A program made the position numbers and the translations under genes. From sequence record OR842557: DNA of 64,000 nucleotides. One strand, 5' to 3'. Each line of letters begins with the position of its first letter. Position 1 is the stretch's first letter. Below the pieces are notes generated by a model, which was given only the letters and a program-made list of their open reading frames with translations, searched no databases and was not told the DNA's origin. This document shows, in pieces, positions 1 through 58,860 of this stretch. This DNA is from Escherichia phage 04086.

Positions 1-662
1 ATCTTCAACAACAGCAGGAACTTTAGGAGTTTCGGCCTTAGGTTCTTCTGGAATAGAGTCTTCAATAACCTTTAATGAACTCCCTTCCGGTGGAATAGAA
101 ATACCAGAAAATTTAGCCTCCAACATATTAGAAAGCTTATTAATCTTTTCGTTTAATGCATCCGAAAGAGCTTTAGATTGTTGAGTTTGTTCTGATATAG
201 CTTCAGCTGTTAATTCTGTCCCGGCAACAACATCTTGGACGCTTTTATCTACTCGGTCTACAGAACTAATAATCTGATTAGACTTTGTCTCAACCACTTC
301 AGAGAGCAATTCAGACGCCGCCTGGGAATCGGATAAAACATCTGATATATTTCCTAATTCGTCGTTCTGAGTTTNNNTTGTTGAGTTTGTTCTGATATAG
401 CTTCAGCTGTTAATTCTGTCCCGGCAACAACATCTTGGACGCTTTTATCTACTCGGTCTACAGAACTAATAATCTGATTAGACTTTGTCTCAACCACTTC
501 AGAGAGCAATTCAGACGCCGCCTGGGAATCGGATAAAACATCTGATATATTTCCTAATTCGTCGTTCTGAGTTTGGGCTAGCGCCTCAGCACGACGCTGA
601 GGAGCCATTTCTTCAATCAGTTTATTGCGACGAAAACTATTCTGATTAGATTCGTTCTTCAT
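1..662 (-). CDS. 29: Baseplate hub / tail-length protein gp29, N-terminal part; gene continues past window start; interrupted by N-bounded duplicate
   Basis: ORF 354..662 ([30 protein letters not shown]) lies directly downstream of gp28 on the minus strand, as in T4 order 51-27-28-29; reading frame continues to position 1. Confidence 0.5.
178..574. repeat. N-bounded direct duplication (copy 178-374, NNN 375-377, copy 378-574); probable assembly-join artifact
   Basis: About 197 nt repeated in tandem, separated only by NNN, inside the gp29 coding region. Confidence 0.6.
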
Positions 663-1215
663 TTAAGATATCCATGATTTTAAGCAATCCTTTGATAGGA
701 CCATTAGGACCAGGGATAGCTATAGTAGAAGTTATATCGTCGGCCCATGTAGCAACAAAGGCAGGCATATCCAGAAAATCTGGTACATCATCACCAAGGT
801 AAAGGGACTGTAATACACTATCAACAGGCCCAAATGTTTGAAATGGTTCATGTGATTTAAATTTAAATGTTTTACCTTGGAATTGGAATTCAAGTCGTTG
901 GCAGATATAAAGGTCATTTAAGTTATAAGTAAACCCGTCTTTGGTTACTTTACTTTTTAATCTTCCATTGAATTCTAAAAGGTGAAGAGCGGCAAAATCA
1001 GTCTCTGCCGCGGATAAATCTTTATAAATGGAATTCATTAATATGTGAAGAGCCTTGTAAGGGTCTTTTTCATCTTTAACCAATTTCTGGTGTTTAAGAC
1101 CCAATTTAGGAATAGAAATCTCTTTATCACCCAGCGTTATTTTCTTGATCGGGAGTATCAGTTTTAAGTTCATTTTTAACCTTCGGTGGTTCTTCAATCT
1201 TAATAGGCTTACCAT
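646..1215 (-). CDS. 28: Baseplate hub distal subunit gp28
   Basis: 189 aa ORF between gp27 and gp29 positions; size close to T4 gp28 (177 aa); synteny. Confidence 0.55.
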
Positions 1216-42054: not shown

Positions 42055-42077
42055 TATAAATAATATTAATATTTATA
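42055..42077. promoter_or_regulatory. Interleaved divergent late promoters: TATAAATA (plus, gene 4) and TATTTATA (minus, gene 53)
   Basis: tataaata 42055-42062 and tatttata 42070-42077 within the 46 bp intergenic region. Confidence 0.55.
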
Positions 42078-42088
42078 AGGAGGCGACT

Positions 42089-42538
42089 ATGGCTTACTCA
42101 GGGAAATTTAAACCTACAAACTTACAAAAATATAAAGGTGACTGGAAGAAAATCCAATATCGTTCCTCTTGGGAAGCATGGTTTATGCGTTGGCTTGACA
42201 ACCATCCTAATGTAGTCCAGTGGAATTCAGAAGAGGTGGTCATTCCTTACTTTTGCAATGCCGAAGGAAAGAAAAGACGATATTTTATGGACTTCTGGGT
42301 TAAATTTGATACGGGCCAACAATTCTTTTTTGAAGTCAAACCTTTTAAAGAAACCCATGCTCCTGCGGTGCCTGTTAAAATGACTACGGCTGCTAAAAAG
42401 AGATATATCAACGAACACTATACTTGGTCTGTTAATACTGATAAGTGGAAAGCAGCTAAAGCTACAGCAGATAAAATGGGTATCACCTTTAGATTGATTA
42501 CCGAACATTCACTGAAAAAATTAGGATGGAAAGGATGA
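42089..42538 (+). CDS. 4: Head completion protein gp4
   Basis: 149 aa (T4 gp4 150 aa); divergent from gene 53 as in T4. Confidence 0.7.
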
Positions 42539-43362
42539 GTATATTTTCCTACATCAATGAGGCTACTGAAACCACAAAGGGTTCCAAGCCCACCCGTTCA
42601 GAACAACAATGGATAACTTTAGGCGTTGAATATGCCAATGCCAAGGCTAAAGGTGTCTCGGCTAAGAAATTCGCTGAAGATAAAGGCATCAAGTATTCTA
42701 GTTTTACATCTGCGATGTCTCGATACTCGAGTCGAATTAAAACTGCTGTACAGGTTGAAAAACTTCAGAAGAAACCTGGCAATAAATTAACCAAAGCCGA
42801 ACGTCAATTAATTTTGGTGAATAGTTTTAGAAAGAGTATTCGTGATAAGATTGCTAACGAAGGCGCCGCTGTAAACAATAAATCAGCTAAATGGTTTACA
42901 GAAACATTAAAGAAAGGAATTCGTGGACACCAGGTATCTAAACCGTCTCCTGGCAAGCTTTATGCTTATATCTATGATGCCAAACATAAGGATACCCTAC
43001 CATACTGGGACAAATATCCTTTAATCATTTATCTTGGGTTAGGTAAGCATAATTTAATGTATGGGCTGAACTTACACTATATCCCGCCTAAAGCACGCCA
43101 ACAATTTCTGGAAGAATTGCTGAAGCAATACGCGAGTACGCCTACCATTACTAACTCGACTAAATTAAAAATCGATTGGAGCAAGGTAAAAGGATTCGCC
43201 GGCGCAGACGTTATGATTAAGGCTTATATCCCTGGAAATATCAAGGGCCCTTTAGTAGAGATAAAACCTGCTGATTGGGCTAATGTAATAGGATTACCAC
43301 TTCAACAATTTGTATCTAAAGGCAAGCGTTACTCAGCTCAGAAAGTTTGGAAGAAGGCATAA
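42526..43362 (+). CDS. 2: DNA end protector protein gp2
   Basis: 278 aa (T4 gp2 274 aa); synteny 4-2-3-1. Confidence 0.7.
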
Positions 43363-44012
43363 TGAATTACCAGAAAATATATTCTTCATTAATTACACGT
43401 GCTCAAGGACGAGCACTATCCTGTTATACAGAATCTCATCATATTTTACCTAGATGTATGGGTGGAGGCGATGAATCTACAAACTTAGTTGATTTAACTC
43501 CTGAAGAACATTATTTAGCACATCAACTATTAGTTAAAATGCATCCGGGACATCCTGGTCTAACTTTTGCAGCTATGACAATGACTCAAGGCCCTCGTCG
43601 TTCTAATAAGCTTTACGGTTGGCTTAAACGTAAGCACTCTGAGAATATCACAGCAACCCAAACAGGAAAGGTTTATTATAATAATGGCAAGAAGTGTATT
43701 AAGCTGTTTCCGGGTGAACCGATTCCTGAAGGATTTGTAAAGGGACGAGGATGGAGTCCTACAAAAGGAACCACTCATGATAGGAATAATGGCCATTTTG
43801 CCAATAAAGAACTCCAAGCGGAGCTTTCTAAACGGAGATGGGATAAAGCCAGAAAGGAAACTTGTGAACAATTTGGTGTGGATACTATAGAAGAGGCCAA
43901 GGATATGGTTCGGGCATTTAAAGCTACATGCCACGAAAGATACTGGATAAAACCAACTATAGCCAAATGGCCTTTTATGACACCAGTAAGACTACGTGAA
44001 TTTATAAAATAA
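43362..44012 (+). CDS. HNH homing endonuclease inserted between genes 2 and 3
   Basis: ORF 43347..44012; ATG at 43362 overlaps the gp2 stop; motif SHHILPRCMGGGDESTNLVDLTPEEHYLAH; paralog of 57594..58346. Confidence 0.8.
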   Translation: MNYQKIYSSLITRAQGRALSCYTESHHILPRCMGGGDESTNLVDLTPEEHYLAHQLLVKMHPGHPGLTFAAMTMTQGPRRSNKLYGWLKRKHSENITATQTGKVYYNNGKKCIKLFPGEPIPEGFVKGRGWSPTKGTTHDRNNGHFANKELQAELSKRRWDKARKETCEQFGVDTIEEAKDMVRAFKATCHERYWIKPTIAKWPFMTPVRLREFIK

Positions 44013-44094: not shown

Positions 44095-44685
44095 ATGAAC
44101 GGTTTATTTAACCAAACTAACACCACCAACTTTATCTTAGAGGTTAGTGACGCAGGAATGACCCAGGCATTCAAATTGAACGTACAAGATGTAACACTAC
44201 CTGGTATCCATATTCCGATCTCAGACGTCCCAGGATCGACCCAGGGCATACATCGTGCTAAGCTGCCAGGTTCTACTGTAGAATTCGACCCATTGGTCGT
44301 GAACTTTCTTGTGGACAAAGAATTGAAATCATGGCTTGACGTTTATAAGTGGATGTTGTCATTAAACAACTACGTAACCCATGATTCAGAAGCCTGGCAT
44401 CCTAAAGGCTTACCTGAAGCAATTACGCTCCATATCCTTGATAATAACAAACAGAAAATAGTAATGAGTATTCATTATTACGGTGGTTGGCCATCCGACC
44501 TCTCGGAAATCCAGTATTCGTATAAAGAAGATTCTGACCCTGCGATAATCGCTACAGCAACATTCAACTTCAAATCGTTTGCTGTAGAAATAGATGGTAC
44601 AATAGTTACAGGTCGTCCACAAATTGATTCGTATGCCGAACAACGTGTGGCTCGTATGTCTATGCATCCATCTATGAGAAAATAA
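44095..44685 (+). CDS. 3: Tail completion / sheath stabilizer protein gp3
   Basis: 196 aa (T4 176 aa) between gene 2 and gene 1. Confidence 0.65.
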   Translation: MNGLFNQTNTTNFILEVSDAGMTQAFKLNVQDVTLPGIHIPISDVPGSTQGIHRAKLPGSTVEFDPLVVNFLVDKELKSWLDVYKWMLSLNNYVTHDSEAWHPKGLPEAITLHILDNNKQKIVMSIHYYGGWPSDLSEIQYSYKEDSDPAIIATATFNFKSFAVEIDGTIVTGRPQIDSYAEQRVARMSMHPSMRK

Positions 44686-56905: not shown

Positions 56906-57138
56906 GCATTGCAATTTATATTAAATCTGAGTCATGTGATTCTTATCTGTATTCCTATGATACCGGAACATCAGAAGAGAAAATCAAAGAAGATTTAGAA
57001 AGCGATATGGATATGTTCTGTCCTATTGGTGACTATATGCTTCAAGTGTCTGATAATGAAAGTCCATCATCAGAAAATAGACTTCAAATTATTATGCAAG
57101 ATATTTTTAAACAATCATGGGAACGAGACGATGGGTAA
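56902..57138 (+). CDS. Hypothetical acidic protein
   Basis: 78 aa ORF with coupled start. Confidence 0.4.
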   Translation: MSIAIYIKSESCDSYLYSYDTGTSEEKIKEDLESDMDMFCPIGDYMLQVSDNESPSSENRLQIIMQDIFKQSWERDDG

Positions 57139-57580
57139 GAAAGCTAAGGAATCATCGGCAGGTATTTTGTTCATGACCGTTGATAAAGAACTGGTCATGG
57201 GTCGTGTAACAGGCTCTCGTAATCCAGAGAACATGCGTCATAAATGGGACATTCCTAAAGGTCATGTCGAACCAGGCGAAGAGCCTATTCAAGCGGCAAT
57301 GCGCGAAACCGAAGAAGAGATTGGATTCACAGCATACGATCCTGCGTTCCTGAAAGACCTAGGTGAGTTCAAATATTCAAGCAATAAGAATCTACATCTG
57401 TTCTTATATACAGTGCCTGTGGAACACGAGCAGTTCAAGGATTGCAAATGTACGGCTTACCATACGTTCCCTGATGGTCGCACGGTTCCTGAATTCGATG
57501 CGTTCGCTTTGATTAAACGTCCGCAATGGGAATATGTCATGGGCCCGTCGATGTATAAAGTTTTGAGTTCGCTCTTTTGA
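57131..57580 (+). CDS. nudE: Nudix hydrolase (NudE-like)
   Basis: Nudix box GHVEPGEEPIQAAMRETEEEIGF; ORF track 57026, ATG at 57131; lies upstream of e as T4 e.1. Confidence 0.8.
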   Translation: MGKKAKESSAGILFMTVDKELVMGRVTGSRNPENMRHKWDIPKGHVEPGEEPIQAAMRETEEEIGFTAYDPAFLKDLGEFKYSSNKNLHLFLYTVPVEHEQFKDCKCTAYHTFPDGRTVPEFDAFALIKRPQWEYVMGPSMYKVLSSLF

Positions 57581-57593
57581 TATAAATACCCGT

Positions 57594-58346
57594 ATGAATT
57601 ATTTAAAAATATATGAATCTTTAATAGAATCCACTATTAAAAGACCTCACATATGTGGGTACACCGAAAAACATCATATTTTACCGAAATCGATGGGTGG
57701 TAGTGATTCTATTGATAACTTAGTCGACCTCACCGCCCGAGAACATTTTATTGCACACCTATTATTGGCACGGATTTTTAAAAATCGCGAAATGTGGTCC
57801 GCTGTATATATGATGGCTTCAACAAGCTTGTCAAACTCTGACAGACATAGATGTTCATCGCATTTGTACGAATTATTGCGAGAACGTGCATCAATATATA
57901 ATTCAGGTGAAAATTCTCCAAATTGGGGAATTAAACGTTCCGAAGAAACACGATTAAAAATGTCAATTTCGAAAATGGGTTCCAAAAATCCAATGTATGG
58001 GATTCCTCAATGCTCGGAACACACCAACAAAATTAGTCTTGGTGTTATTGAAGCTTTTAAAAATCCGGAAATAAAAGAGCGACATAGGCAAAGTGTTTCC
58101 GGGGAACTCAATGGGTTTTATGGAAAGAACCATTCCGAAAAAAGTTTGGAAAAACAACGGAATGCAAAACGGAAAGGATTTCCTTGGGACAATTATTCAG
58201 AATTGTACCCAATTTGGGTTTCATTAAATTGTCCCAAACATCCAACATTCACAAATGAACTTGTTAAATTGGGATATCCTAAAAAGAAACTTGTTCGAAT
58301 AGTGGAAGAATTTAAAAATGAATATCTTCGAAATGTTACGCCTTGA
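57594..58346 (+). CDS. HNH homing endonuclease between nudE and e
   Basis: Motif [31 protein letters not shown]; N-terminus [11 protein letters not shown] paralogous to 43362..44012. Confidence 0.8.
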
Positions 58347-58806
58347 TGAAGGCTGTAAATTGGACTTATATAAGGATACTGAGGGCTACTATACTATTGG
58401 CATTGGCCAATTGATTACTAAGAACCCTTCTAAAGATGTTGCTCGTGCTGAACTTGATAAGCTTATGGGTCGAGTTTGTAATGGTCGTATTACTATGGCT
58501 GAAGCTGAACAACTCTTTAACCGATCGGTTGAAAATGCTCGTAGAGCTATTCTGCGTAATCCTAAATTGAAACCTGTTTATGATGTACTGGACGAAGTTC
58601 GTCGTTGTGCTTTAATTAACATGGTCTTCCAAATGGGTGAAGCAGGCGTAGCAGGGTTCACTAACTCTTTACGTATGCTCCAACAGAAACGTTGGAACGA
58701 TGCGGCAGTTAACCTGGCTCAATCCCGTTGGTATAAACAAACTCCTAATCGTGCTAAGCGTGTTATCGCCACCTTTAAAACCGGCACATGGGCTGCTTAT
58801 AGATAA
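58318..58806 (+). CDS. e: Endolysin (T4 lysozyme, gene e)
   Basis: 162 aa; [11 protein letters not shown], catalytic Glu11/Asp20 context [13 protein letters not shown], and [29 protein letters not shown] match T4 lysozyme. Confidence 0.97.
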
Positions 58807-58811
58807 AAGCA

Positions 58812-58860
58812 GTTTACATCTCCTGTAGTCATGATACTATAGACCTATCAACTACAGGAG
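58812..58860 (+). promoter_or_regulatory. Early promoter stem-loop cassette (GTTTAC-N17-TACTAT inside CTCCTGTAG / CTACAGGAG hairpin)
   Basis: Near-identical copy at 61428-61478; directly upstream of denV. Confidence 0.6.

Follow-up and report, generated by a model that had tools for sequence, protein, structure and literature searches.

Two open reading frames with an HNH core, here called HNH-1 and HNH-2, are found in the genome of Escherichia phage 04086, where they separate genes that are neighbours in T4 and in most relatives, namely genes 2 and 3 and genes nudE and e. This raises the question whether they are homing endonuclease genes and how they have marked their surroundings. The sequence analysed is a stretch of 64,000 nucleotides from record OR842557 (the window), which derives from a T-even phage of the genus Dhakavirus (JS98-like). 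In a preliminary description, made from the letters of the window, both genes were taken as the footprint of active or recently active homing endonucleases. The intact genes, insert-free alleles, and mosaic flanks presented below bear out that part of the description, and its wording of the two genes as close paralogs had to be dropped. We consider HNH-1 and HNH-2 to be free-standing homing endonuclease genes of the T4 Mob family, with a probability of about 85%.

The gene order around HNH-1 is 5, 53 (on the minus strand), 4, 2, HNH-1, 3, 1, 57A, and 57B, and around HNH-2 it is e.2, nudE, HNH-2, e, and denV (Table 1). None of the 50,697 phage records searched is identical to the window, and the closest one across genes 4 to 1 is phage C6 (97.4%). 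A scan for the T4-type late promoter motif returned 20 matches in the window versus 7.2 expected from shuffled sequences, and scans for sigma-70 promoters and terminators near HNH-1 and HNH-2 gave nothing above the shuffle expectation. The window contains 13 ambiguous bases (N, at 375-377, 2162, 7026, 20069, 20349, 40062, 40323, 45752, and 48638-48640), which lead to X residues in the gp5 reading frame and in one other; none of them falls within or adjoins HNH-1 or HNH-2.

Table 1. Positions of the genes, motifs, and mosaic segments discussed in the text (window coordinates).
Feature	Position	Strand	Basis
Late promoter motif TATAAATA (T4-type), 5' of gene 4	42055..42062	+	Motif scan and gene order
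Gene 2, DNA end protector	42526..43362	+	Annotation/relatives
Substitution cluster at the 3' end of gene 2, linked to the presence of HNH-1	43285..43314	+	Permutation test and alignments
HNH-1, probable Mob-type free-standing HNH homing endonuclease gene, 216 aa	43362..44012	+	PHROG 655, homologs, alignments
Gene 3, tail completion/sheath stabiliser	44095..44685	+	Annotation/alignments
nudE, Nudix hydrolase; last ~100 nt mildly mosaic versus insert-free relatives	57131..57580	+	
Late promoter motif TATAAATA of the lysozyme gene	57581..57588	+	Motif scan
HNH-2, probable MobD-like HNH homing endonuclease gene, 250 aa, three NUMOD3 motifs	57594..58346	+	
e, lysozyme	58318..58806	+	Annotation/alignments
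Foreign Gaprivervirus-like tract, 5' end of e	58318..58428	+	Pairwise identities
e codons 22-25, GAG GGC TAC TAT	58383..58392	+	Allele comparison
Third Mob-type HNH gene, 244 aa	61951..62685	+	

Both genes lie where they had first been placed. HNH-2 occupies 57594..58346 exactly, and the ATG of HNH-1 at 43362 is located inside the listed reading frame 43347..44012, whose start is an upstream TTG at 43347; the ATG was taken as the start of HNH-1 because it matches the MNY... N-terminus of all homologs. The common N-terminus and HNH core of the two proteins were confirmed by BLASTP (35/61 identities, E 1e-19). However, the similarity, which corresponds to the catalytic HNH module (residues 1-61, 57% identity), ends at residue 61, and the C-terminal two thirds of the proteins do not align. 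HNH-1 and HNH-2 are thus members of a modular family rather than close paralogs, and a recent duplication was rejected because the alignment covers these 61 residues only. The T4 mob genes likewise consist of a well-defined HNH domain that is fused to a distinct C-terminal region (PMC2988022), and the same fusion of an N-terminal HNH module to a distinct C-terminal (presumably DNA-binding) region is found in both proteins of the window.

The HNH (beta-beta-alpha-metal) motif is intact in both proteins as judged from the alignment, the conserved residues, and a structural model of HNH-2. In eight Mob-type proteins including T4 MobD, the residues Y22, E24, H26, H27, P30, G34, G35, N41, E49, H50, and H54 are invariant, with E24, H26, H27, N41, H50, and H54 being the key HNH residues (HNH-1 numbering). 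The HH...N...H core can also be aligned to solved HNH domains, namely those of a group II intron maturase, Cas8-HNH, and McrA. With PHROG 655 (homing endonuclease), a profile specific to phages, HNH-1 and HNH-2 give E values of 9e-56 and 4.8e-56, respectively. The Pfam models HNH (PF01844), HNH_4, and HNH_5 reached 19.5, 19.3, and 17.3 bits with HNH-2, which is below their cut-offs of 21.4, 22, and 27.5, and the Pfam HNH models gave no match to HNH-1 at E values up to 0.1; given the strong PHROG 655 matches, these generic models are too distant and the motif is not absent. The Pfam search further detected NUMOD3 (PF07460) in three stretches of HNH-2 (45.7 bits versus a gathering threshold of 20.4) and none in HNH-1, and an NCBIfam search yielded no match above cut-off. 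The AlphaFold model of HNH-2 (mean pLDDT 86) displays a beta-beta-alpha core with pLDDT >90 (strands 24-28 and 43-47, helix 48-62), followed by a long helical region. When this model was compared with the PDB, only weak local matches to Cas8-HNH domains were obtained (best E 0.56) and no full-length homing endonuclease.

Inactivating mutations in the HNH core, which the preliminary description had named as evidence against its reading, were not found, and both reading frames are intact. Both genes are under purifying selection with a dN/dS of about 0.1: the values for HNH-1 are 0.09 versus C6, 0.07 versus QL01, 0.07 versus dhabil, and 0.14 versus e11/2, and for HNH-2 versus TH15 the value is 0.11 (0.099 when the overlap with e is excluded). 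Together with the invariant catalytic residues, this selection argues for working proteins and not for decaying relics, and the idea of inactive relics is therefore not supported. Both proteins are presumably active nucleases, and their genes may still be mobile.

HNH-1 and HNH-2 are free-standing, have the same orientation as their conserved neighbours, and are absent from corresponding sites in related phages. The comparison with insert-free junctions that the preliminary description had suggested was carried out, and the closest relatives have insert-free alleles at each of the two sites, with junctions that are defined to the base. At the gene 2/3 junction, alignment with insert-free IME08 and the carrier C6 delimits an insert of 650 nt (43363..44012) directly after the gene 2 stop. 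Its ends carry a 4-nt ATAA repeat, resulting in a boundary ambiguity of 4 nt, and the 82-nt spacer between genes 2 and 3 is unaltered by the insert. The ATG of HNH-1 shares one base with the TAA stop of gene 2 (TAATG), and HNH-1 is probably translationally coupled to gene 2. It also probably belongs to a late 4-2-HNH-1-3 transcript, as suggested by the TATAAATA motif upstream of gene 4 (42055). Translational coupling and promoterless cassettes are known from the mob and seg genes of T4 (PMC2988022).

HNH-1 is carried by eight close-relative records (C6, SHP1, QL01 (twice), LQ5, ABTNLS3, E33, and dhabil) and is missing from about 43 relatives, where the query coverage is 81% and exactly the HNH-1 segment is lacking. 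Full-length orthologs with 51-63% identity occupy the same site in Gaprivervirus P479, Tequatrovirus e11/2, and Serratia phage SP1. As these represent three other genera, the HNH-1 lineage appears to be old and tied to one site. The gene is already annotated in several GenBank records as a 'site-specific intron-like DNA endonuclease' or a 'homing endonuclease', and the annotated gene at the 2/3 site of QL01, C6, E33, dhabil, e11/2, and P479 is HNH-1 at the same position; the amino acid identity is 95-99.5% within Dhakavirus and 61-63% to e11/2 and P479. Literature searches found no published study of a gene 2/3 endonuclease element. In P479, a second annotated homing endonuclease is located between genes 4 and 2 (33..680 of its record segment), so that gene 2 is bracketed by two such genes in that phage.

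Mosaicism that is linked to the presence of the insert was found at both loci, in keeping with co-conversion and with the earlier proposal that the inserts mark intergenomic recombination points. On the downstream side of the HNH-1 insert, there is essentially no difference between alleles. On the upstream side, the final ~100 nt of gene 2 show 95-97% identity to the carriers C6, QL01, and E33 and 80-88% to insert-free alleles. When the window was compared with insert-free fDHCT2, 11 of the 85 differences over 3356 aligned nt were located in the 30 nt from 43285 to 43314, a clustering that 0/5000 permutations reached. The same was observed in an independent pair from another genus: between e11/2 (a carrier) and T4 (insert-free), 10/57 differences fall in one 30-nt window (0/5000 permutations), and the offset of the cluster is identical in both genera (48-77 nt before the gene 2 stop). 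The segment 43285-43314 is thus a predicted recognition or nicking region of HNH-1 that is altered in carriers, with the change from GTGGTCATGCTT to GTAATAGGATTA supplying the candidate immunity positions. Alternatively, it could represent the centre of a co-conversion tract. In the carriers C6, QL01, and E33, the CCACTTCAGCA core of insert-free gene 2 is retained and the differences lie just upstream of it, and the site is therefore not sharply defined. It counts against the footprint reading that mosaicism unconnected with HNH-1 or HNH-2 is common in the genome, for example in the 57A region. Sharp mosaic blocks that adjoin no endonuclease gene are found at 45432..45680 (gene 57A) and 46320..46600 (after 57B), the former having 54-78% identity to QL01, E33, Bp7, and JS98 and 93-99% to IME08, C6, dhabil, and fDHCT2.

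HNH-2 is distributed differently and represents a rare, essentially undescribed MobD-like lineage. No Dhakavirus record contains it, with no record covering at least 80% of the query, and a tblastn search of the 50,697 phage records identified a single close relative (90% amino acid identity) in the Gaprivervirus TH15, where it is unannotated in a record marked 'UNVERIFIED'. The block around HNH-2 has about 81% nucleotide identity between TH15 and the window, and VR7, which is a 97.9% relative of TH15, does not carry the gene. The next relative in the tblastn search is T4 MobD (38.5%). A scan of IMG/VR retrieved no close relative (best 40% identity), and among 5.8 billion proteins two close clusters were found (90% and 76% identity), both from read-archive assemblies. 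Both of these relatives are located between Nudix and lysozyme genes and have the same 3' overlap with the lysozyme gene. HNH-2 is thus known from three diverged lineages, all at nudE/e and in Dhakavirus-like as well as Gaprivervirus-like backgrounds. The nudE/e junction is listed as the site of no T4 homing endonuclease (Table 1 of PMC2988022).

A footprint is also present downstream of HNH-2. Compared with Bp7, the window shows 34 differences in 111 nt (58318-58428) and then 3 across 58429-58860. The first ~100-110 nt of e are 66-75% identical to insert-free Dhakavirus alleles and 81-91% identical to TH15, and they encode a 25-residue stretch of the Gaprivervirus type and not of the Dhakavirus type. 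Beyond this tract e is 98-100% Dhakavirus-like, which places the right breakpoint between 58428 and 58479. The tract is interpreted as a co-conversion tract from a Gaprivervirus-like donor. TH15 itself was rejected as the direct donor of HNH-2, as the genes are only ~81-87% identical in nucleotides with a dS of 0.51, and the donor would accordingly be a diverged Gaprivervirus-like relative. On the left flank, the 3' end of nudE (57481..57567) differs from Bp7 and LHE83 at 12-14 positions in about 90 nt, and there are almost no differences further upstream. This segment corresponds to neither TH15 nor L027, and the C-terminus of nudE (...MYKVLSSLF) is a hybrid of Dhakavirus and Gaprivervirus endings.

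Codon 25 of e, which in the window falls within the foreign tract, encodes Tyr (TAT/TAC) in 4/4 insert-bearing alleles and Trp (TGG) in 9/9 insert-free Dhakavirus and Gaprivervirus alleles. L027 has an otherwise Dhakavirus-like e, yet carries the Tyr25 change. TH15 and VR7 differ at 6 positions within 16 nt in the region of codon 25, which is moderately significant (57/5000 permutations). From the foreign tract, the Tyr25 change in all carriers, and the TH15/VR7 cluster, the target or immunity position of HNH-2 is predicted to lie at codons 22-27 of e (about nt 60-85). Important to note here is that the insert-bearing alleles are related and not independent, which makes the Tyr25 association a lead and not proof; the target predictions for both genes rest on associations among such related genomes.

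The insertion of HNH-2 has also altered the sequences that precede the lysozyme gene. In insert-free Dhakavirus and Gaprivervirus alleles and in T4, a late promoter motif (TATAAATA, or AATAAATA in Gaprivervirus) precedes a hairpin in which the Shine-Dalgarno sequence of e forms the 3' arm. The hairpins of insert-free Dhakavirus and Gaprivervirus alleles fold with -14.6 and -18.4 kcal/mol (z -2.5 and -3.6). In the window, 727 nt (57591..58317) stand in place of the 20 nt TCCTATACTCAGGAGGTATT (the hairpin/Shine-Dalgarno segment) of insert-free alleles, and here as well as in the three other insert-bearing alleles HNH-2 has taken the place of the 3' arm, the Shine-Dalgarno sequence, and the greater part of the 5' arm. 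The 3' end of HNH-2 overlaps e by 29 nt, so that the start of e lies inside the HNH-2 reading frame, preceded only by GGAAGAA, and the ribosome-binding region of e is part of the HNH-2 coding sequence. No significant RNA structure is predicted at the e start of the window (z -0.2). A replacement hairpin formed by UUCGAAUA and UAUUCGAA was considered and is not claimed, as it is weak in TH15 (z -1.4), bulged in the window (z -0.2), and mismatched in L027, with no covariation.

The distance from the end of the late motif (57581-57588) to the ATG of HNH-2 is 5 nt, and it is 5, 5, and 4 nt in TH15, L028, and L027, respectively. T4 late transcripts begin about six bases after the late promoter motif, and late RNA would accordingly begin at or beside the AUG of HNH-2. 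In T4, early read-through transcripts of e fold into the hairpin and are poorly translated; late transcripts begin inside the hairpin and get translated (McPheeters et al. 1986, reviewed in PMC3014915). The underlying sequence arrangement is kept in insert-free Dhakavirus and Gaprivervirus alleles and disrupted in the HNH-2 carriers. We tentatively suggest that HNH-2 rewires lysozyme control through loss of the hairpin and formation of a leaderless or near-leaderless endonuclease-lysozyme mRNA, from which e might be translated by means of a weak internal ribosome-binding site or by ribosomes that have passed through the endonuclease gene, although we regard this as doubtful. If true, an essential lysis function would be tied to a selfish gene, whose clean loss would be costly.

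Under the homing interpretation, the C-terminal region of each protein would be a lineage-specific DNA-binding part. During mixed infection, the enzyme would nick or cut the insert-free allele of a relative inside the conserved neighbour gene, presumably at the 3' end of gene 2 for HNH-1 (about 48-77 nt upstream of the insertion point) and at the 5' end of e for HNH-2 (around codons 22-27, about 65-80 nt downstream). Recombination repair by the phage would then copy the endonuclease gene together with adjoining donor sequence into the broken genome, and carrier genomes would escape cutting because of their target substitutions. HNH-1 would thus be an old lineage at the 2/3 site that is translationally coupled to gene 2 in the late operon, and HNH-2 may have entered this Dhakavirus from a Gaprivervirus-like donor along with about 110 nt of the donor e.

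Such a scheme agrees with what has been reported for T4, where MobA and MobE nick their targets and co-conversion accompanies homing (PMC2988022, PMC2790892). MobE, which is encoded between nrdA and nrdB, is a characterised nicking enzyme, and both its architecture and its way of working match those predicted for HNH-1 and HNH-2: the gene is intergenic, it has no promoter of its own or is coupled upstream, its target lies in the 5' end of the downstream gene, and the flanks are co-converted (PMC2790892). The MobE nicks in T2 nrdB, at nt 122-126, lie on the downstream side of the mobE insertion (PMC2790892), and the predicted HNH-2 target in e (nt ~66-80) parallels this position. However, the C-terminal domain, target gene, and site differ, and nicking was shown for MobE and is presumed for the genes described here. 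The nearest named relative of HNH-2 is T4 MobD (38.5% identity over 98% of its length), which is encoded between nrdC.11 and mobD.1. MobD and HNH-2 share the N-terminal HNH module and resemble each other in the C-terminal tail (LYxIWVxLNxPK...KLGYPK), and the mobD gene is likewise free-standing and oriented like its neighbours, but the insertion site is different and the identity is below 40%. As MobD is a putative homing endonuclease, whose activity and target are listed as not determined or unknown (Table 1 of PMC2988022), it provides no functional benchmark for HNH-2.

Two other explanations need to be weighed against homing. The genes might no longer be mobile and persist through their entanglement with the expression of essential neighbours. 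Clean loss would then be harmful, since e has no ribosome-binding region other than the one in HNH-2 and is cut off from its late promoter by that gene; HNH-1, for its part, is coupled to gene 2. The replaced hairpin and Shine-Dalgarno sequence and the start of e inside the HNH-2 reading frame speak for such retention, which has been described for T4 homing endonuclease genes with embedded regulatory signals (PMC2988022), and the great rarity of HNH-2 fits a non-spreading element. This explanation is nevertheless improbable in our view, as purifying selection acts over the whole reading frames (also in HNH-2 outside the overlap with e, dN/dS 0.099) and the catalytic residues are invariant. Furthermore, the occurrence of three diverged HNH-2 lineages in two genus backgrounds requires repeated transfer, and the precise insert-free alleles at the HNH-1 site imply that its clean absence is viable.

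It has to be considered as well that the nucleases are kept mainly for the benefit of the phage (marker exclusion, or recombination and amplification near useful loci), with self-propagation being secondary. It is established that homing endonucleases of T4 cause marker exclusion (PMC2988022), and SegB was reported in 2026 to promote the amplification of anti-defence loci (PMC13096335). The presence of three such genes within about 20 kb of the window would fit this idea too. We nonetheless find it very improbable: no defence or anti-defence gene was identified beside either insert, and the patchy distribution (HNH-1 in 8 of ~51 relatives, HNH-2 in 1 of 50,697 phage records) fits selfish spread better. 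Moreover, phage benefit and ordinary homing can go together, and the sequence offers nothing by which to tell them apart. Homing by Mob-type endonucleases thus remains our preferred explanation for both genes.

The third Mob-type HNH gene (containing ...YTEKHHIIPSCVGGPDTQDNLVELYADEHYLAH...) is situated between regB-like and vs.1-like reading frames. It is polymorphic as well: of the Dhakavirus records listed, PSD2002, IME540, FB, and NC-G carry it and the remainder do not (66% coverage). The HNH-1 carriers in this list (ABTNLS3, E33, LQ5, and QL01) are without the third gene, and none of the four carriers of the third gene is among the HNH-1 carriers. As these sets of carriers are disjoint and HNH-2 occurs in no Dhakavirus record, the combination of all three genes is unique to this genome.

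The biology of both inserts is expected and not surprising. Mob-family endonucleases are, however, poorly characterised, and the route from nick to homing is an open question in the field (PMC2988022). HNH-1 and HNH-2 offer two test cases, each with a natural resistant and a natural sensitive allele and with a predicted target that is narrowed to about 30 bp; at the e locus, there is a single candidate immunity change (Trp25 to Tyr). The carriers of HNH-2 are in addition a natural experiment on lysis timing without the textbook lysozyme hairpin. For comparative genomics, the inserts provide two recombination boundaries in Dhakavirus genomes, or three with the third HNH gene.
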